A DNA stretch of 14,057 bases from an uncultured Deinococcales bacterium. GTDB lineage: Bacteria > Deinococcota > Deinococci > Deinococcales > JAAFIG01. The stretch spans positions 1 through 14,057 of the forward strand of contig CAXTTL010000126.1 of NCBI GenBank assembly GCA_964247135.1. Direction: 5' to 3'. Under the pieces are notes generated by a model. It did not search any database, was not told the origin of the DNA, and saw nothing but the letters and a program-made list of their open reading frames with translations. Shown here in pieces: positions 558 through 12,749 of the stretch. Position numbers and translations under genes: made by a program. How positions within the stretch are numbered: the first letter of the stretch is position 1; every line of letters starts with the position of its first letter.

Positions 558-1526
558 ATGCAATTTACTCAACTTGGTCGCAGTGGTCTAAAAGTCAGCC
601 GTCTTTGCCTTGGTACCATGAATTTTGGTCCTGAAACGTCTGAACCTGACAGTTTTAAAATCATGGACGCGGCGCTCGAGCGTGGCATCAATTTTTTTGA
701 CACCGCCAACGTCTACGGACGCAAAATTCACCTTGGTTTCACCGAGGAAATCATTGGGCGTTGGCTCGAGCAAGGTGGACGGCGCGAGAAAATTGTGCTG
801 GCAACCAAGGTGTATGGCGGCATGGGCGAGGGACAGAACGATGCACGCCTTAGTGCCTATCACATCCGCAACGCCTGCGAAGCCAGTTTAAAACGCCTCA
901 AAACCGATCACATTGATTTGTATCAAATGCACCACGTGGACCGCAACACGCCCTGGGAAGAAATTTGGCAGGCGATGGAATGGTTGGTCGCGCAAGGCAT
1001 GGTGTTGTATGTCGGCTCGAGCAATTTTGCGGGTTGGCACATCGCGCAGGCGAACGAGGCGGCAAAATCGCGGCATTTTATGGGTTTGATTTCCGAGCAA
1101 AGCATTTACCACCTCAACAACCGTCAGATCGAACTCGAGGTGATTCCAGCCTGTCGAGGCTATGGTTTGGGTGTGATCCCCTGGAGTCCGTTGGCGGGTG
1201 GTTTGCTGGGCGGCGTGCTGCAAAAAATCGCGGAAGGTCGGCGCTCGAGTGAGGCGATTCAAGCGCGGGTTGAGAAACACCGTCCGCAACTCGAGGCGTA
1301 TGAAGCCTTGTGCAAAGAATTGAACGAAACGCCAGCCGATGTGGCGTTGGCGTGGTTGTTGCACAATCCTGTGGTCACTGCGCCGATCATTGGTCCGCGC
1401 ACGCTCGAGCAATTGGATGGGAATCTCAAGTCACTCGAGGTCAAGCTGGATGCGGCGACCTTAAAGAAATTGGACGAGATTTTCCCTGGACCTGGCGGCG
1501 AAGCGCCAGAAGCTTACGCTTGGTGA
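558..1526 (+). CDS. Aldo/keto reductase
   Basis: Motifs LGRSGLKVSRLCLGTMNFG, GINFFDTANVYG, LATK, DHIDLYQMH, PWSPLAGGLL and PIIGPRT. RBS AGGAGG (548-553) precedes ATG 558, so the start is 558 rather than the ORF-track 504. Confidence 0.95.
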   Translation: MQFTQLGRSGLKVSRLCLGTMNFGPETSEPDSFKIMDAALERGINFFDTANVYGRKIHLGFTEEIIGRWLEQGGRREKIVLATKVYGGMGEGQNDARLSAYHIRNACEASLKRLKTDHIDLYQMHHVDRNTPWEEIWQAMEWLVAQGMVLYVGSSNFAGWHIAQANEAAKSRHFMGLISEQSIYHLNNRQIELEVIPACRGYGLGVIPWSPLAGGLLGGVLQKIAEGRRSSEAIQARVEKHRPQLEAYEALCKELNETPADVALAWLLHNPVVTAPIIGPRTLEQLDGNLKSLEVKLDAATLKKLDEIFPGPGGEAPEAYAW

Positions 1527-5739: not shown

Positions 5740-6461
5740 AATACTTTTTATTGTTGATTGTCTTAGCCTGCTCGAGCGTCTTGGCAATCGCGCCTGGAAT
5801 TGTTACCAACGGTACTCGGGACAAACCGCGCATCGCCCTGACCTTCGATGCCGACATGACCCCAGGTATGAAAGGACTGCTGGACAGCGGAAAAGTCAAA
5901 TCGTACAACAACACCAAAATTTACGCGCTGCTCGAGCAATATAAGCTTAAAGCCACGTTTTTTTTGACGGGCATGTGGATGGAACGCTACCCAGATCAGG
6001 TTAAAGCCTTCATTAAAAACCCGCGTTACGAACTCGAGAATCACAGCTATGCGCACCCTGGGTTTTTGCAACCGTGTTACGGACTGCCTGGCATTGCCGA
6101 AAAGTTCAAGGTCGCGCAGGTATTGAAAACCAAAACGCTGCTCGAGCAATACGGCATCAAAAACAAGTTTTTTCGCTTTCCAGGTGGTTGCGCCAGCAAA
6201 GCCGATGTTGCCCTGGTCAACAGCCTAGGACTCGAGGTGGTGCATTGGGACGTGATCGGCGGGGACGGTGGTGCGACGGGTGCCAACGTGATCGTCAAAA
6301 ATGTTTTGAGCCAAGTGAAAAATGGCAGTATTATTGTGCTGCACTCGCACGGAGGACCAAAGGTGCGATTTACAGATCAGGCGCTGAAAACAATCATCCC
6401 AGCCCTCTTAAAGCGCGGTTTTCAATTTGTGAAGCTCGAGGAATTGCTGCAAAACCATTAA
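5736..6461 (+). CDS. Secreted polysaccharide deacetylase (NodB/CE4 domain)
   Basis: Signal peptide (KYFLLLIVLACSSVLA), then IALTFDAD, KATFFLTG, ENHSYAH, FRFPGG, VHWDV and GSIIVLH (CE4 motifs). Start is GTG 5736 or 5733. Confidence 0.92.
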   Translation: MKYFLLLIVLACSSVLAIAPGIVTNGTRDKPRIALTFDADMTPGMKGLLDSGKVKSYNNTKIYALLEQYKLKATFFLTGMWMERYPDQVKAFIKNPRYELENHSYAHPGFLQPCYGLPGIAEKFKVAQVLKTKTLLEQYGIKNKFFRFPGGCASKADVALVNSLGLEVVHWDVIGGDGGATGANVIVKNVLSQVKNGSIIVLHSHGGPKVRFTDQALKTIIPALLKRGFQFVKLEELLQNH

Positions 6462-6579
6462 TTGCAGCTTGAAAATCAAGCTCGAGTATACCCATACGAC
6501 TTGATGATTGTTGACCACCATTCTTTCCGGAAAATACAGCCCCTCTCTGTTTTACGCTCAGCCAACAAAAAGGAATCGC

Positions 6580-6723
6580 ATGAAAGACAATCTTGAAAGC
6601 CAGAAAATTCCGTACCAAACTCCAAAACTCGAGGTGGTCGGCGTGTTTGTGGCGTTGATTGCCGCTTCGGTGATTACGGTGCCAATTCAATTCAATCAGC
6701 CAAGTGACGGAGAAAAACAATGA
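6580..6723 (+). CDS. 47-aa small peptide with lasso/RRE-type RiPP leader motif (YxxPxLxxxG)
   Basis: RBS AAAGGA precedes ATG 6580. Sequence MKDNLESQKIPYQTPKLEVVGVFVALIAASVITVPIQFNQPSDGEKQ*. Its TGA overlaps the downstream ATG (ATGA 6720-6723). Confidence 0.65.
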   Translation: MKDNLESQKIPYQTPKLEVVGVFVALIAASVITVPIQFNQPSDGEKQ

Positions 6724-8618
6724 AGAACCTTGTGAATTGCGTTGCGACTGCCCTTATTGCAGCCTTGTCCTTGGCATCGTGTACGCAAAGCAGTCCTGAA
6801 CCACAACCCAACCACGTTCTAGGGCTGATGCGGGTCAATTTTCAAGTTGAGGGCATCGCCAGTTCAAATGCCAAACCCCAACCAAAAATCCTGACAGGCA
6901 CAGCCAGTGGCATCCAAATGAAGCTGGTCAACTCCAGCACCTTCACCACTGGCACTCGAGGCGCAGGCGGTGAGCGCTGGGTCAGTGCGACTTACGATAT
7001 TCGCAACGCAACCACCCTCGGCACAGCGTATACCACTGCCAACAGCAACATCAGTTTCTTGGCGGTCAGTACCCCAACGGGTCTTGGCGAAAGTGCCATT
7101 GCCGATATGAGAAGTTACGGCGGCACCCTGTTGACGACACCAACTCTGGCGCAATCGTTCAAGCCAACGCACGGAATGCGCTACAACCCTTTAACCAACA
7201 CCACCGAAACCAGTCCGGGCGCAGAAGATTTTCAAGTCTTTGACGAATCTGAAGTCTCGAGCTTTGCGACGGCTGGTGTTGTCCCAATCAATTATGGTTT
7301 TGTGGTGCGGCGCACCAGTCTAAACCCGATCAATCGCAGCTTGGCGGCGAACCCAGGCGTTAATCAATTCGATGGGCGTGTGACTTTCGCCGTGCGTTTC
7401 CCACTGCAAACCACAATAACTGACGACCCATTTACGTTTTCGATGGACTTTCTGGTGGTCACCGACGATCAAACCAGGGTCACCCAAAGCCTCGAGCAAC
7501 AAGCCCTCAACAGTGTTCCAAGTCAAACATCGCAATTGACGGGTGCTGTGGTCAATATTATGCCTGGCTCGGCTTATCTTGCCACGCCCAACCGTTTTAT
7601 TCCGAGTGTACGCTTGGCACGGGCTGCGGCGGCGGTCAACGCCATTTATTTGGTTCAAGCACCAACCACATTGACGGTCACAAGCAACGCCGACAGTGGA
7701 GCGGGTACATTACGCAATGCCATTCAAGCCATTGCCTCAGGTGGCACAATAGATCTAAAAGGCATCAACAATCAGAACATCACACTGTTAAGCACCCTGG
7801 ACATCAGTAAAAGCCTGACCATCACCAATTCCAATGCTGCGCCCAATGTGGCGGTGTTGGGTGGGGCAACCGCCTTTAATGCCAGCAATGTGCGCGTTTT
7901 GAACCTTCAGAGCGGCAATTCTGCCACGTTGAGCAACTTCACCATAGGCAATGGTTATGCCTCTGGCAGTTCTGCCCAAGGTGCCGCGATTCTGAATGCC
8001 GGCACACTGACCTTAAGCAACATGAAAGTCCAAAACAATCAAGCCCAAGGTGATGCTGGTGGTAATGGCACCCCTGGTTTTAGCGGGTCTCAAGATGGTG
8101 GCGGCGGTGGTACGGCTCAGGGCGGCGCAATCTACAATGCTGGCGCACTCACCATCAACTCGAGCAGCGTCTTTAGTGGCAACAAGGCAAGCGGTGGTGT
8201 CGGTGGTTCGGGCGCTGCCGGGTCTTTGACAAATGGTTTTCCCAATGGTTTTGGTGGACTGGGCGGAACTGCACAAGGCGGTGCGATTTTTAACGCGAAC
8301 TCAGCGACATTGAGCATCAACACTGTCACGTTCACCACCAACAATGCCACGGGTGGACAAGGCGGAGTACCAGGTACGGCAATAGGTGGTTCAGGTCAAA
8401 CTACTTTTGGCAAAGGTGGTTCTGGTGGCAGCGCAAACGGAGGCGCGGCATTCAACGCCAACGCGACCCTCGGTGCCGCCACAGCCTTAGCGGTCACGTA
8501 TGGAACGGCTGCCAATGCCAACAGCGTTACCTTTGGAAATGGGGTACAAGGTGGTACTCCTCTTGGCACAAACAATGGGTCAAATGGCACTGCCAGCAAT
8601 CCAAATGCCAATTTCTAA
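6720..8618 (+). CDS. Surface lipoprotein: N-terminal beta-rich domain plus C-terminal Gly/Asn-rich beta-helix (Pmp/CSLREA-like) repeats
   Basis: Lipobox LAS-C21. VTSNADSGAGTLRNAI resembles a beta-helix N-cap. Repeats GAAILN, GGAIYN, GGAIFN and GGAAFN are interspersed with GGxGG runs. Confidence 0.8.
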   Translation: MKNLVNCVATALIAALSLASCTQSSPEPQPNHVLGLMRVNFQVEGIASSNAKPQPKILTGTASGIQMKLVNSSTFTTGTRGAGGERWVSATYDIRNATTLGTAYTTANSNISFLAVSTPTGLGESAIADMRSYGGTLLTTPTLAQSFKPTHGMRYNPLTNTTETSPGAEDFQVFDESEVSSFATAGVVPINYGFVVRRTSLNPINRSLAANPGVNQFDGRVTFAVRFPLQTTITDDPFTFSMDFLVVTDDQTRVTQSLEQQALNSVPSQTSQLTGAVVNIMPGSAYLATPNRFIPSVRLARAAAAVNAIYLVQAPTTLTVTSNADSGAGTLRNAIQAIASGGTIDLKGINNQNITLLSTLDISKSLTITNSNAAPNVAVLGGATAFNASNVRVLNLQSGNSATLSNFTIGNGYASGSSAQGAAILNAGTLTLSNMKVQNNQAQGDAGGNGTPGFSGSQDGGGGGTAQGGAIYNAGALTINSSSVFSGNKASGGVGGSGAAGSLTNGFPNGFGGLGGTAQGGAIFNANSATLSINTVTFTTNNATGGQGGVPGTAIGGSGQTTFGKGGSGGSANGGAAFNANATLGAATALAVTYGTAANANSVTFGNGVQGGTPLGTNNGSNGTASNPNANF

Positions 8619-8768: not shown

Positions 8769-9281
8769 ATGAAAATCTCGAGCGTCCTGTTAAGCATTGT
8801 CATGATCCTGGGTTTTTCTGCCCGAGCCGCAGTCCCAAAAGCCTTTGATGCGTTCGCTGGAAAATGGACTGGCAAACTCGAGTATCAAGACTATCAAGGC
8901 ACTGGACGGGTCAGCATTCCTGTGAAGCTCGAGGTTAAACCCAGCAACGAGACGACGGCGATCTGGGATTTTGTCTACGACGATTTTGGTAAGCCCGTGC
9001 CGAGTTTTGAAACGCACGCTTGGAATGGCAGCACATACACGGTCACGACCAAAGGAAAACCCGAGGTGTTGACGTACAGCAGCCAAGACTTTGCGAAACT
9101 TTTGACCGCAAAAATTGGAAAAGCAGTCTTGACTGGCTTCGAGATCGAATTGGGTGCAAAGGTTGAGGTGCGCCGTACCATCACGCTCGAGCCTCAGAAA
9201 ATGGTGACGTTGAAAGAAACCCGTCTGAAAGGTGAAAAATTTCAATTCCGCAACCAAAGTACCTACAGCCGTCAACCCTGA
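8769..9281 (+). CDS. Secreted hypothetical protein (predicted beta-rich fold)
   Basis: RBS GAGG and Sec signal MKISSVLLSIVMILGFSARA. FAGKWTGKLEYQDY and alternating beta-strand patterns suggest a calycin-like barrel (inference). Confidence 0.75.
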   Translation: MKISSVLLSIVMILGFSARAAVPKAFDAFAGKWTGKLEYQDYQGTGRVSIPVKLEVKPSNETTAIWDFVYDDFGKPVPSFETHAWNGSTYTVTTKGKPEVLTYSSQDFAKLLTAKIGKAVLTGFEIELGAKVEVRRTITLEPQKMVTLKETRLKGEKFQFRNQSTYSRQP

Positions 9282-9328: not shown

Positions 9329-9350
9329 ATTACGCTCGGGGAGGAAAGTG

Positions 9351-11201
9351 ATGCCCAAAGACCGAATGCGACAATGGCAAAAACCAGAGAATTTTGAGAC
9401 TCAAGCTTTTGAATTTATCAGCCAACAACCCGAACGCCAAGGTCAAGCCCTGGCACCCGAAACAAGATCGCAACTCGAGCCTGGATTTGGGCATTCGTTT
9501 GCCGATGTGCGGGTGTTCAGCGATTTGGAATCAAACCGTCAAGCCCAAGGTCTTGAGGCTCGAGCGTTCACGGTGGGGCAGGGCATTCACTTTGCCGCAA
9601 ATGAGTACGCGCCTCAAACTCGAGATGGGCAAGCACTGTTGGCGCATGAGCTTTCGCACGTGGTACAGAACAAGAACGATTCTGGTGCCCAAGCCAAAAC
9701 TGGGGTCAGCCAAGGGCATGATGCTTCAGAACTTGAGGCTTCTCGAGCCTCCGAGCAGGTGTTGGCTGGGCAGACCGCGCAGATTCAAAGCGTTCCTGGC
9801 GCGGCAATTCAACGCTTTGGCAGTCTCGAGCATATGCTGCTCGGCGAGATGGGTTCAGGCGGCAAACAATCGGATATCAATTACGGTACAGATGACCATC
9901 CCGAATTTTTGTCGTATGGGGAGATGGTGGCACTGGCAGGCGATCATTTCAAATCAATCGAGCAAATGCGAGGCTTGACCACAACCCAGGCAGGTCGAGA
10001 TGAAATTCGTTACGCCCGTTGGAAATCGATGGGCAAAGACATGGGTTTGCCAAAACCCAAAGTTGACCCAGAGATCGAAAAAAAAGTGGAAAACGATTAC
10101 TTAACCCTTGCTGCCGATAACTTTAGCCATTTTAGCGCGGGTGGAACCGCCCGAAATGACTATCAGACCTACCACTTGCAAGCCCTTGGCGAAGCTTTTG
10201 AGGCAGGGAAGCACAATGACCCCAAAAAATTTATGCAAGCCACCACCACCGAAGCTTTCGGAAATCATTACCTGACCGACATGTTTTCGGCGGGGCATGT
10301 CCGAACCGAACGAATCACGATCAAAGGTTGGTACAGGCAGCATTACCCAGATGATATTGCCAAGTTTAAGACCTACTTGGCAGCAACATTGCGGCATTTT
10401 TTAGAAGACGATGTGCGATCCGAAGATTGGGGACGCACCAAGCTGGCAATAGGCAAATCCATGCGTTGGTTGGATGGTGACATCAGAACAGGTGAGGAAA
10501 CCAACACCATGCCCTTTTCAGGTGGAAATAAATTCCCAACCCAAGCCGACCTCGAGCAAAAAATTGAAGAACTTGCAGGTCCGGCTTTAAAAGCATTCTC
10601 GTTGGGAGACATCGTGGCACTTGCCATTCATGACACTGACAATCAAGGCTTAAACGTCACTTCCGAAGCCGACACGAATGGGTCAGATGTCATTGGTGGT
10701 CACTCCTACCGAGCCGTTGGTGATGGGCAACTTTTGCCAGCTTTGACCACCAGTGGTGCGGATGCCGATAAAGGCGCACAAACTCGAGACATGGCACTCG
10801 CAGCGATTCGACAATCTCTTGCCGAACTCGAGCAAGTAAGGGCGGCAGGGGCAAAAGCGGCAGGTTTGAGTATGCCAGACCGGGTGGTTGAATTGCGCGA
10901 AATGGCAATTTCGCAACAACGCGATGGACAAAATCAATTTGGTGCGGAGCGTTTTATTCCCAAAGATGACATCAGCGCGGGCAACACCAAATTTGATTGG
11001 CAATGGGGTTCGTTTAACGATCCAATGTACAACGCGGTCGATATTGCCGTAAAAGGCGAAATCGCCAACCAAATTCTTGATAAAGCCAAAGATCAAAGCG
11101 ATGAGCGTATCAAACGAGCCGTTGAATATCTTGGTTCGCAACTCAACATTTGGGGCATTGCCAATCTTGAATGGGCGCTGAACGAACCTGCCAAGAAGTA
11201 A
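9351..11201 (+). CDS. DUF4157 (eCIS-associated, HExxH) domain protein fused to a zinc phospholipase C-like C-terminal domain
   Basis: LAPETRSQLEPGFGHSFADVRVF..ARAFTVGQGIHF..LLAHELSHVVQ..ELEA is DUF4157. After AAIQR come FGSLEH, SYGEMVALAGDHF, LAADNFSHF, EAFGNHYLTDMFSAGHVR, HDTDNQGL and GDG, resembling the Legionella PlcA/B/C and Pseudomonas PC-PLC metallophospholipase family. Start is ATG 9351 or GTG 9348. Confidence 0.82.
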   Translation: MPKDRMRQWQKPENFETQAFEFISQQPERQGQALAPETRSQLEPGFGHSFADVRVFSDLESNRQAQGLEARAFTVGQGIHFAANEYAPQTRDGQALLAHELSHVVQNKNDSGAQAKTGVSQGHDASELEASRASEQVLAGQTAQIQSVPGAAIQRFGSLEHMLLGEMGSGGKQSDINYGTDDHPEFLSYGEMVALAGDHFKSIEQMRGLTTTQAGRDEIRYARWKSMGKDMGLPKPKVDPEIEKKVENDYLTLAADNFSHFSAGGTARNDYQTYHLQALGEAFEAGKHNDPKKFMQATTTEAFGNHYLTDMFSAGHVRTERITIKGWYRQHYPDDIAKFKTYLAATLRHFLEDDVRSEDWGRTKLAIGKSMRWLDGDIRTGEETNTMPFSGGNKFPTQADLEQKIEELAGPALKAFSLGDIVALAIHDTDNQGLNVTSEADTNGSDVIGGHSYRAVGDGQLLPALTTSGADADKGAQTRDMALAAIRQSLAELEQVRAAGAKAAGLSMPDRVVELREMAISQQRDGQNQFGAERFIPKDDISAGNTKFDWQWGSFNDPMYNAVDIAVKGEIANQILDKAKDQSDERIKRAVEYLGSQLNIWGIANLEWALNEPAKK

Positions 11202-11224
11202 TACGTTTACTTGAAAACCAGACA

Positions 11225-11268
11225 AGCATTTCAGATGGCTTGATTTTCTGGCGCTTCCCTGAAATGCT
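11225..11268. repeat. Perfect 10-bp inverted repeat AGCATTTCAG...CTGAAATGCT with 24-nt spacer
   Basis: Arms at 11225-11234 and 11259-11268. The left-arm sequence recurs intergenically at 1552-1561. Confidence 0.6.
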
Positions 11269-11298
11269 AAGACCCGAGGCGAAAGCTTCGGGTCTTTT
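11269..11298 (+). terminator. Probable intrinsic terminator after the DUF4157-PLC gene
   Basis: AAGACCCGAGGC-GAAA-GCTTCGGGTCTT forms a 12-bp stem (one G-U) with a GNRA loop, ending in a short T run. Confidence 0.7.
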
Positions 11299-11333
11299 GC
11301 ATAAATTAACCTAAACCTGTATAAATATAAACG
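11296..11333 (+). promoter_or_regulatory. Tandem ARG-box-like (ArgR) operator upstream of carA
   Basis: 18-mers tttgcataaattaaccta (11296-11313) and cctgtataaatataaacg (11316-11333) are 2 bp apart and resemble TGnATnnnnATnCA boxes. The second matches better than the first. Confidence 0.55.
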
Positions 11334-11372
11334 CTCGAGCGCAACTCGAGTTCTTTTGATGGAGGAACACCC

Positions 11373-12557
11373 GTGTTGAAACGAGAACGTGCTGTGCTGG
11401 CGCTGGAAGATGGAACAGTTTACCGTGGTTATGCCTTCGGTCATCGCGGCGAAACCGTTGGCGAGGTGGTGTTCAACACATCCATGACCGGTTATCAAGA
11501 AATCATGACCGACCCGAGTTACAACGGTCAGATCGTTTGCATGACCTACCCGCACATTGGCAATTACGGCATTACTGTTTACGACATGGAATCCAACAAA
11601 CCGTATGTGCGCGGTTTTATTGCCAGGGAATTCTCGAGCCATTACAGCAATTACCGTGCCACCGACGGCATGGATTCGTTCACCGAAGACCACGGCGTGG
11701 TCAGCATTGCGGGCATCGACACGCGGTCCTTGGTGCGGCGCTTGCGGGTGGGCGGCGTGGTCAAGGGCGTGATCGCGCACCGCAGTTTCACGCACCCTGA
11801 AGACCCGTTTGGTGAGTTTACCCCAGATGAGGAGGCAGGGCTGGTCTCTCGAGCCAAAAACCATGACGACATCGACGGGCGCGACATGACGCCCGAAGTC
11901 ACCACCGAATTGCCGTATGCCTATCCAGTGCTGGTCGAGGGCAAACGCATTGTGCTGCTGGATTTCGGCATCAAGCACACGATCATCAAAAAACTGGCTG
12001 GCGTCGGTGCAGAACCGATTGTCGTGCCTGCCAGCACCACGCCCGCCCAGATTATGGCGCTCCAACCGCATGGACTTTTTCTCTCCAACGGTCCTGGCGA
12101 CCCGAGTGCGCCCGTATACGCGCACGACACCGCCTGGAAATTGCTGGGCTTGATGCCAACCTTTGGGATTTGCCTCGGGCATCAAATTCTGGGGCTGGCG
12201 GTCGGCGGCAAGACCTTCAAAATGAAATTTGGGCATCGTGGCGGCAACCAACCCGTCAAAAACCTTTTGACGGGCAAGGTCGAAATCACGGCGCAAAACC
12301 ACGGCTATGCGGTGGACATCGACAGCATCCCGAATGGGCAATTCAAGGTCACGCACGTCAACCTCAACGATGGCACGCTCGAGGGGATGGCGCACGTGAG
12401 ATACCCAGTCTTTAGCGTTCAGTACCACCCAGAAGCCAGCCCAGGACCGCACGACAGCAATTATCTGTTCACGCGGTTTATCGACGAAGTCAACGCCTTC
12501 GCGGGTGCGAACGGCGTGCCGACCGAGAAAAGCTCGAGCGGTTTGCTGGGCGTTTAA
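11373..12557 (+). CDS. carA: Carbamoyl-phosphate synthase small (glutaminase) subunit
   Basis: Motifs [48 protein letters not shown] (catalytic Cys), QNHGYAVD and [23 protein letters not shown] at 11361-11366. Confidence 0.98.
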
Positions 12558-12697: not shown

Positions 12698-12741
12698 AAT
12701 CTTGTCAGACTTCGTTTGACAAGATTTGGAATTGATAGACT
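12698..12741 (+). promoter_or_regulatory. Inverted repeat AATCTTGTCA-N9-TGACAAGATT followed by extended -10 (TGaTAGACT) of the regulator gene
   Basis: Perfect 10-bp arms at 12698-12707 and 12717-12726. TG at 12733-12734 and TAGACT at 12736-12741 lie 8 nt before ATG 12750, with no RBS. The repeat could be an operator or the carA terminator. Confidence 0.5.
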
Positions 12742-12749
12742 CTTTAAGA

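Follow-up and report, generated by a model that had tools for sequence, protein, structure and literature searches.

A conserved peptide gene with a lasso-type leader precedes a lipoprotein gene in a Deinococcales genome: a likely substrate of an LPP-like, cyclase-less enzyme set

We analyzed a stretch of 14,057 nucleotides from an uncultured Deinococcales bacterium (GenBank assembly GCA_964247135.1, contig CAXTTL010000126.1, here C126; the whole stretch is called the window), in which a 47-residue open reading frame (ORF) at 6580-6723 directly precedes and overlaps the gene for a 632-residue lipoprotein. The product of the small ORF (MKDNLESQKIPYQTPKLEVVGVFVALIAASVITVPIQFNQPSDGEKQ, by translation of the window) belongs to a conserved peptide family with an amino-acid signature of its own, whose members stand before lipoprotein genes and, in relatives, are linked to genes for three proteins: a PqqD-like protein of the type that acts as recognition element (RRE) for peptides that are made by ribosomes and modified after translation (RiPPs), here called B1; an HprK-like kinase (K); and a nucleotidyltransferase fused to a B2-type leader peptidase (N-B2). 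No cyclase gene accompanies them. We consider it likely that the window ORF is a substrate of this B1/kinase/N-B2 set, acting in trans, and by analogy with characterized systems its product is probably a linear, Ser-phosphorylated, leader-cleaved peptide. On this reading the system works like the linear polyphosphorylated peptides (LPPs) of Bacillota and the Bsf-type phosphorylated peptides, and not as a lasso peptide.

The peptide gene and its family

A prior sequence-only reading of this DNA had described a small ORF with its own ribosome-binding site, a GGAG for the lipoprotein gene in its coding tail, and a stop codon overlapping the lipoprotein start. Direct reading bore this out (Table 1), the lipoprotein ATG (6720) and the peptide TGA (6721-6723) together forming ATGA at 6720-6723. 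Boxes resembling AAGGA, GGAG, or GGGA also precede the ATG in orthologs and paralogs of the peptide. Stop and start overlap or abut in 26 of the 46 peptide-lipoprotein pairs for which our heuristic gave a lipobox ORF start, out of 63 distinct peptides examined. At high-GC loci the lipoprotein usually starts 25-80 nucleotides downstream of the peptide gene, so that overlap coupling, unlike the peptide itself, is not found everywhere. Consensus scans for a promoter and a terminator around the pair did no better than shuffled sequences.

The window peptide has no signal peptide, and its middle is hydrophobic and strand-like. The lasso leader motif YxxPxL(xxxG) is present as Y12-Q-T-P15-K-L17-E-V-V-G21, to which B1 is predicted to bind. 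At the spacing of the penultimate leader residue, which in lasso precursors is Thr or rarely Ile or Val, there is Ile27; this residue would stand in for Thr(-2), with S30 as the candidate site of phosphorylation. The core (A29-S-V-I-T-V-P-I-Q-F) contains no acidic residue, the first one past the predicted junction being D43. That Ile replaces Thr six residues past the Gly, and that the Asp or Glu expected of a lasso precursor at core positions 7-9 is absent, had been read correctly beforehand.

The small ORF is kept open in all eight orthologous loci compared, which come from three genera (the window and seven related genomes, the orthologs being chosen by lipoprotein identity of 80-91%), and the pairwise ratio of nonsynonymous to synonymous substitution rates (dN/dS) was 0.17-0.80 in all 28 pairs (Nei-Gojobori, 46 codons). 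A homologous small ORF before homologous lipoprotein genes and purifying selection upon it, two of the points on which the sequence-only reading had staked itself, were both found. The conserved residues V22, L26, I27, S30, and V34 are encoded by differing synonymous codons among the orthologs, and T33 is replaced by Arg in four of the eight. The P-K-L-E codons (CCA AAA CTC GAG) are invariant at the DNA level among the orthologs, and the Leu-Glu pair of codons (CTC GAG, 6628-6633) is a copy of the palindrome CTCGAG. Conservation of Leu-Glu may therefore lie partly at the DNA level; both residues are nevertheless conserved in relatives of 61-74% GC. The palindrome itself recurs every ~250-300 bases in the window, for example at 6438, 6481, 6628, 6957, 7258, 7493, 8160, 8677, and 8780.

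For the family signature we aligned 61 distinct peptides on the leader Tyr, three of them being mis-registered by the regular expression used. Tyr occupies position 0 in 56 of the 61, Gly +9 in 51, and Trp +11 in 45; position +15 is Thr in 50 and Ile in seven, these seven being the window's ortholog group, and the first Ser falls at +19 in 36 peptides and at +18 in 11. As a consensus the family has Y-x-x-P-x-L-E-x-L-G-x-W-x-x-L-T-L and then x-x-S-(V/I)-P-(I/V), and many high-GC members end straight after it (...TL QQSVPIFP), which gives an 8-residue core without an acidic residue. No NCBIfam model covers the family: a paralog on contig C141 passes the lasso_leader_L3 model (NF033521; 20.1 bits against a cut-off of 19), one metagenome peptide matches the same model below its cut-off, and eleven further members had no match above cut-off. 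Being open in eight of eight loci, with synonymous changes at its conserved residues and a family of 61 members, the 47-residue ORF is more than a product of chance.

The lipoprotein partner and its paralogs

The partner protein begins with a signal peptide and lipobox, the Cys column of which is at least 90% conserved in a 122-sequence alignment (A2), and it is predicted to be lipidated. Homologs of 78-91% identity are of equal length and carry the JGI label 'trimeric autotransporter adhesin'; the protein itself had no match in Pfam or NCBIfam. Its conserved N-terminal domain (N-domain) gave a mostly beta-strand AlphaFold2 model with a pLDDT of 90.7 and a pTM of 0.89. A Foldseek search of the model against the PDB returned no match at E<=0.001, and the best hit of VIA-align among 48,161 chains had a Z of 5.7 (VP37 of white spot syndrome virus, 114 residues aligned, root-mean-square deviation 3.2). 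Since that value is below the level at which more than a common beta arrangement is meant, we assign no fold to the domain; in the protein atlas it fell in unnamed clusters only, at 0.79 or below. A search of 1.84 billion proteins gave 414 cluster representatives of the domain at E<=0.001, and almost every one inspected was a lipoprotein that carries it at the N-terminus. The repeats of the C-terminal region in the window protein probably form a beta-helix and may resemble Pmp-type repeats.

Further pairs were found within the same genome (5.09 Mb in 386 contigs, 84% complete). A six-frame motif search of it identified two more P-Y-Q-T-P-K-L-E peptides, on contigs C141 and C147, each overlapping the start of a lipoprotein gene, and an iterated hidden Markov model (HMM) of the first ~330 lipoprotein residues identified ~16 ORFs with the N-domain. 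Inspection upstream of these, together with a small-ORF profile scan, gave five strong peptide-lipoprotein pairs (C126, C141, C147, C154, and C26), in each of which the peptide gene stands directly before a lipoprotein gene with the same N-domain. Weak or startless candidates were seen on C89, C58, C40, and C3. The last three (C58, 2517-2684, reverse strand; C40, 1-282, forward; C3, 40792-41094, forward) are weak profile matches (E 0.001-0.04) reading Y-x-T/K-P-x-L-E; none lies directly upstream of an N-domain gene, the C58 copy lying just downstream of one, and they may be decayed or divergent copies of the peptide.

As had been anticipated, the paralogous lipoproteins share the N-domain and differ in their C-terminal parts, which consist of Gly/Asn-rich repeats in the window protein; the C147 protein is 1293 residues long, and in Deinococcus the corresponding proteins contain Exo_endo_phos and LTD domains. 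The peptide cores are conserved among orthologs and differ between paralogs. This pattern fits cognate peptide-lipoprotein pairs, although duplication of the module as a unit would give the same pattern.

The family reaches well beyond this genome. A 14-sequence peptide alignment (A1) had profile matches in 53 of 364 Deinococcota genomes, with up to 13 in a single genome; the positive genomes include 15 of the 18 in the window's own family ('Deinococcales bacterium' metagenome-assembled genomes) and 32 of the 125 in the Deinococcus-like family. With these matches and at least five pairs in one genome, the earlier description of the peptide as an orphan did not survive. An N-domain ORF lies directly downstream in 23 of the 29 peptide loci returned by the phylum search, and another lipobox protein in four more. 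In the single-contig genome G011, six of seven peptide matches precede N-domain lipoproteins. The seventh (locus L091, G011:C1:2493000-2498000, ~1031-1198, forward strand, ...E-Y-Q-P-P-R-L-A-Q-H...) is not before a lipoprotein; the ORF after it encodes 460 residues (1282-2664) and resembles, by eye only, a metallo-beta-lactamase/beta-CASP-type hydrolase.

An alignment of high-GC N-domain representatives yielded 71 metagenome loci of 50-74% GC, 38 of which have a peptide-profile match at E<=0.01, directly upstream of the N-domain ORF by a distance criterion in 27 of the 38. The partner lipoproteins at high-GC loci carry FG-GAP repeats, and these loci are known as contigs only, with no phylum label; a search of contigs from named genomes with a narrower N-domain alignment returned only 10 loci, all from Deinococcales or Deinococcus. 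At one metagenome locus (L120, 4919-5251, forward strand) the peptide gene lies between the lipoprotein and N-B2 genes and not before the lipoprotein, and gene order in the cassette is therefore not fixed.

The remaining genes of the window are housekeeping or unrelated by Pfam, and include those for a polysaccharide deacetylase, DinB, GNAT, NrdR, CarA, and an eCIS_core protein. The last of these (9348-11201, forward strand) has 617 residues. It starts with an eCIS_core/DUF4157 domain (PF13699, E 3e-26), in which there is an H-E-L-S-H motif, and its remainder is without a Pfam family; just before it, at 8769-9281, is a gene for a 170-residue secreted protein without family. The ORF at 12726-14057 (forward strand) runs past the window end and encodes a regulator that combines BTAD with an AAA/NB-ARC-type part. 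A similar large BTAD/AAA/TPR protein (locus L038, 13008-15815) adjoins a lasso cluster found on another contig, C32, of this genome.

Table 1. Positions of the features of the peptide-lipoprotein pair in the window
Feature	Position	Strand	Basis
Shine-Dalgarno-like AAGGA of the peptide gene	6570..6574	+	Direct reading; five bases before the ATG at 6580
Candidate precursor peptide gene, 47 residues and stop; 'A' of a cyclase-less lasso-type (LPP-like) system	6580..6723	+	Translation, ortholog conservation, family profile
Predicted RRE-binding leader motif, Y12-Q-T-P15-K-L17-E-V-V-G21	6613..6642	+	Y, P, and L invariant in alignment A1
Predicted leader/core junction, I27-A28 / A29-S30	6658..6669	+	Inference from family spacing and published precursors
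GGAG ribosome-binding site of the lipoprotein gene, within the coding tail of the peptide	6709..6712	+	Direct reading
Lipoprotein gene, 632 residues	6720..8618	+	Signal peptide with lipobox LASC (...IAALSLAS-C21; Cys21 at 6780-6782)
Conserved N-terminal domain, ~residues 30-330, mostly beta	6807..7709	+	Profile search, AlphaFold2; no Pfam family
Variable C-terminal region, Gly/Asn-rich repeats (GGAI...FxxN-like)	7710..8615	+	Visible in translation; no Pfam match at E<=0.01

Modifying enzymes, proposed pathway and alternatives

A Pfam scan of the 18 window ORFs found no PqqD/RRE, no transglutaminase-like (B2-type) peptidase and no Asn-synthase-like cyclase, in agreement with the sequence-only reading. 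Elsewhere in the genome there are two PqqD genes, one in the lasso cluster on C32 and one on C14. The latter (B1) is a stand-alone gene overlapping the start of a gene for a 291-residue HprK-related kinase, and its product matches the lasso B1 models NF033530 and NF033536, below their cut-offs, as well as the solved TbiB1/TfuB1. A 449-residue protein encoded on C33 (N-B2) joins an NTP_transf_5 nucleotidyltransferase to a second B2 domain behind it; a search of solved structures gave no sequence relative of this fusion at E<=0.1. Judged by their motifs (GPSGRGKT and a preceding His in the kinase, Cys...GHAW in the B2 domain), kinase and B2 look intact. The earlier idea that the peptide is processed in trans gains support from this predicted stand-alone PqqD and kinase on C14 and N-B2 on C33, and 'two-gene system' proved too narrow a term, the window pair being one dispersed copy of a five-component system of peptide, lipoprotein, B1, kinase, and N-B2, the genes of which lie together in Deinococcus-like genomes and on high-GC metagenome contigs.

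The connection between the peptides and these enzymes is visible in relatives. In G011 the genes for PqqD, kinase and a convergent N-B2 are contiguous. G043 has two LTD lipoproteins, the peptide, divergent PqqD and kinase genes and then a convergent N-B2 (NTP_transf_5::Transglut_core3); G129 has the mirror image of this order, after which come an Exo_endo_phos-LTD protein and an ABC exporter. At the metagenome locus L127 the peptide is followed by an 856-residue FG-GAP lipoprotein with the N-domain, an N-B2 gene that starts at the lipoprotein stop, and convergent kinase and PqqD genes. Within 2.5-kb flanks of the 71 metagenome loci, N-B2 was found at 13, the kinase at 11, and PqqD at eight. 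Among the Deinococcota genomes a kinase match was present in 47 of the 53 peptide-positive and 42 of the 311 peptide-negative genomes, counts that ignore kinship, and in many Deinococcus-like genomes the peptide is within ~1 kb of the kinase match. Genomes of the window's own family without peptide matches (G007, G008, and G010) are also without PqqD and kinase matches. None of the compact clusters of G043, G129, G011, and L127 contains a cyclase gene, and the three genomes as a whole, searched with some bases of G043 and G129 withheld, gave only partial Asn_synthase (PF00733) matches of ~60-70 residues and no full-length cyclase.

The genome under study does contain a lasso system, on C32 (L038, 7778-12994), a paeninodin-like cluster of sulfotransferase, B2, B1, cyclase, and HprK-like kinase. 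Either a frameshift or an assembly error divides its cyclase between two ORFs, at 9787-10842 and 10882-11643. Between the cyclase and kinase genes, within 11429-11848, lies a candidate precursor with W-I-A-P-V-V and ...D-T-S-F-G-A-N-S-T-F-V-D. According to Popov et al. (Nat Commun 2026; main text, PMC13381572), RREs of LPP and paeninodin systems in one host distinguish their substrates by a Tyr or a Trp in the leader, and by analogy the Tyr leader of the window peptide and the Trp leader of the C32 candidate mirror that rule.

We propose the following pathway. The N-terminal half of the peptide, up to ~I27-A28, would serve as a lasso-type leader. B1 from C14 would bind Y12-Q-T-P-K-L and present the peptide to the HprK-like kinase, which would phosphorylate S30 just past the leader; T33 is a less likely target, as it is Arg in four of the eight orthologs. 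B1 would likewise present the peptide to N-B2 from C33, whose B2 domain may cut near I27-A28/A29 and whose nucleotidyltransferase domain may extend or decorate the phosphate, as PsmN is described to do in pseudomycoidin (PMC8498205). No macrolactam ring would be formed. One enzyme set would be shared in trans by the five or more dispersed peptide-lipoprotein modules, and the lipoprotein, its synthesis tied to that of the peptide by the ATGA overlap, would be an integral fifth component. We count the lipoprotein as part of the system because its gene lies between peptide and N-B2 in high-GC operons and follows the peptide in nearly every locus. As to its relation with the peptide, we weakly favor the mature peptide being a ligand, carrier or control element of the N-domain. 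The peptide-less N-domain genes, the genomes that have the domain alone, and the lack of an export signal and, in the stretches covered, of a conserved exporter speak against a necessary structural role.

Several observations weigh against this proposal. In this genome B1, the kinase, and N-B2 are on contigs other than that of the window, so that linkage rests on relatives, and six of the 53 peptide-positive genomes have no kinase match (G002, G013, G018, G040, G266, and G299), although G040 is 100% complete. The window peptide departs from the family consensus at three hallmarks (the Trp of +11 is Phe, the Thr of +15 is Ile, and the Ser stands at +18 instead of +19) and had no NCBIfam match at E<=1 and no Pfam match; it could for these reasons be processed differently or poorly. 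In this genome no peptide gene stands upstream of about 10 of the ~16 genes for N-domain lipoproteins, and the N-domain occurs in some genomes, such as G008 and G024, with neither peptide nor enzymes, which means that the domain does not need the peptide; in the AlphaFold2 model, too, it is predicted to fold confidently alone. Finally, the cassettes showed no conserved exporter in the short stretches covered: an ABC exporter was seen only beside the G129 cluster, and none in the stretches of G043, G011, and L127. As the peptide has no signal sequence either, the proposal does not account for the way in which it would get from the cytoplasm to a lipoprotein that is exported.

The departures from consensus, the lack of a lasso-leader HMM match and the weak or startless copies on C89, C40, C3, and C58 would also suit a window copy that is drifting, is no longer processed, and is kept by its coupling to a useful lipoprotein gene. 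We regard this as rather unlikely, as F23, I27, S30, and V-P-I are kept in eight genomes of three genera under purifying selection, and a functional precedent for Ile(-2) exists in BsfA (Duan et al., 2023; PMC10368454). The gene order and frequent translational coupling, the hydrophobic strand-like middle, and a core conserved in orthologs and variable in paralogs, as cognate pairs would be, could alternatively describe a peptide that stays unmodified and serves the lipoprotein structurally, for example as donor strand, chaperone, or membrane tether, its likeness to RRE leaders being incidental. Yet the most conserved parts are the leader and the T-L/x-x-S-V-P-I junction and not a lipoprotein-specific segment, the peptide is linked to and co-occurs with B1, kinase, and N-B2, it lacks a signal peptide while the lipoprotein is exported, and the N-domain model is complete and confident by itself, with most paralogous N-domains having no peptide. 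We find this reading improbable.

It is more improbable still that the ORF is a translational device only, coupled to the lipoprotein gene and encoding a functionless product. The ATGA overlap, the lipoprotein ribosome-binding site inside the ORF, and the overlap or abutment in over half of the assigned pairs are what such a device would show, but the amino-acid signature is kept from 50% to 74% GC with differing codons, dN/dS is below 1, and the peptide is still present at high-GC loci that mostly lack the overlap. Conservation of the peptide sequence across phyla speaks against a purely cis-acting leader, one of the roles considered at the outset. The reading to which we give the least credence is that of a true lasso precursor cyclized in trans by the C32 cyclase. 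The leader fits YxxPxLxxxG, the genome has a paeninodin-like cluster with a cyclase, and Ile(-2) is tolerated in some lasso systems, going by the account of the Bsf cluster (PMC10368454). However, the window core has no Asp or Glu at positions 7-9 and the 8-residue cores of many relatives have no acidic residue at all, G043, G129, and G011 combine peptides and B1/kinase/N-B2 with no full-length cyclase match, and the C32 cyclase, besides being split, has a WxxP candidate precursor of its own, which the Tyr/Trp discrimination reported in the LPP main text (PMC13381572) would keep apart from a YxxP peptide. With no ring residue and no cyclase in the compact clusters, the lasso reading was rejected. 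The view that a non-lasso system here uses an RRE-type leader, already taken in the sequence-only reading, is supported by these same absences and by the B1/kinase/N-B2 linkage.

On the in-trans reading, LPP-related chemistry exists outside Bacillota, with a different leader peptidase, and a single set of enzymes can suffice for many precursor genes scattered over a genome, an arrangement that cluster-based genome mining would miss. The lipoprotein, with a dedicated domain that has no Pfam family and no clear solved match, is a concrete partner for functional testing, and a genome holding both YxxP linear peptides and a WxxP lasso candidate offers a natural test of Tyr/Trp discrimination in another phylum. 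A bolder and speculative extension is that surface lipoproteins in several bacterial phyla each have a short linear 'key' peptide of ribosomal origin, RRE-recognized, phosphorylated (perhaps phosphoglycosylated) and freed of its leader, that binds the N-domain and controls export, anchoring, or activity. If this were true, such peptides would form a RiPP class with a new function, acting as dedicated cofactors or ligands of proteins in place of a secreted antibiotic or signal, and would give LPP-type chemistry its first biological role, with a dozen or more cognate pairs per enzyme set in this Deinococcales lineage.

Comparison with known peptide systems

The closest counterpart is the LPP system of Bacillota, encoded by LppA/K/B/S/D/N (Popov et al., Nat Commun 2026; PMC13381572). 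Our comparison refers to the main text of that paper, the supplementary data of which may list further cluster types. In it, the precursor motif is YxxPxVLxHQxIxFETxxS (Paenibacillus alginolyticus), LppK adds several phosphates to Ser3, and the signal-peptidase-like LppS, with presentation by the RRE, cleaves off the leader behind Thr(-1); the NTP transferase gave no detectable product in the heterologous host. The peptides of the present family likewise have a YxxP RRE-binding leader followed by Thr and then by Ser within three residues. In the window peptide the spacing from Y12 to S30 is 18, equal to that of the published LppA motif, with Ile in place of Thr, and phosphorylation is predicted only. 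Both systems comprise a stand-alone RRE, a kinase resembling HprK and an NTP transferase and no cyclase (the genes being in trans here and contiguous in relatives), and both coexist with a paeninodin-like lasso cluster that uses a WxxP precursor, W-I-A-P on C32 in this genome.

The two systems differ in their peptidase, which in every cassette examined here is a lasso B2 (Transglut_core3) fused to NTP_transf_5, whereas LPP clusters use LppS, a signal peptidase I of the archaeal type; this comparison covers the cassettes, no search for SipW-like genes elsewhere in the genomes having been made. LPP clusters as described lie within capsule loci and carry an MsbA-like exporter, LppD; in the short stretches covered here an exporter was seen only beside the G129 cluster. 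The precursor gene here is next to that of an N-domain lipoprotein, while the word 'lipoprotein' occurs 0 times in the LPP main text. Moreover, LPPs are said there to be restricted to Bacillota, and the present peptides are found in Deinococcota and on high-GC metagenome contigs; their precursor genes are multi-copy and dispersed. The biological role of LPPs and of lasso peptides tailored by a kinase and nucleotidyltransferase is stated as unknown in the same text.

The Bsf cluster of Bradymonas sediminis (BsfA/B1/B2/C/D/K/N; Duan et al., 2023; PMC10368454) makes a phosphorylated lasso peptide. By the experiments reported there, BsfA has YxxPxL at -17 to -12 and Ile at -2 and is phosphorylated at Ser3 by BsfK with the help of B1, which also assists B2 in leader removal. 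In BsfA numbering the consensus of our family is Thr/Ile(-2), Leu(-1), and Ser3, and a B2 peptidase and a nucleotidyltransferase are again present. Unlike Bsf, which has a cyclase and a Gly1...Asp8 ring, the present system has neither cyclase nor ring-forming acidic residue, and in it N and B2 are fused and a lipoprotein partner is found in nearly every locus. An FG-GAP repeat protein that flanks the bsf cluster was judged in that account not to be involved; given the FG-GAP partner lipoproteins seen here, we note it as a lead only. In the paeninodin and pseudomycoidin lasso clusters of Firmicutes, as described in PMC8498205, an HPr-kinase homolog and a nucleotidyltransferase, sometimes fused to B2, tailor the peptide, and PsmN extends the phosphate in pseudomycoidin. 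In those clusters the kinase has as its target the Ser at the C-terminus of a lasso precursor, and the peptides here neither end in Ser nor are predicted to be cyclized.

In the open-access literature searched, including RRE-Finder and the LPP main text, no lasso-type or LPP-type precursor was found paired with a lipoprotein. The claim that the system was undescribed can thus be kept for the lipoprotein pairing and has to be given up for the enzymology: what is new is the lipoprotein partner together with the B2-type leader peptidase, whereas the modifying chemistry has close published relatives in LPP (PMC13381572) and Bsf (PMC10368454).

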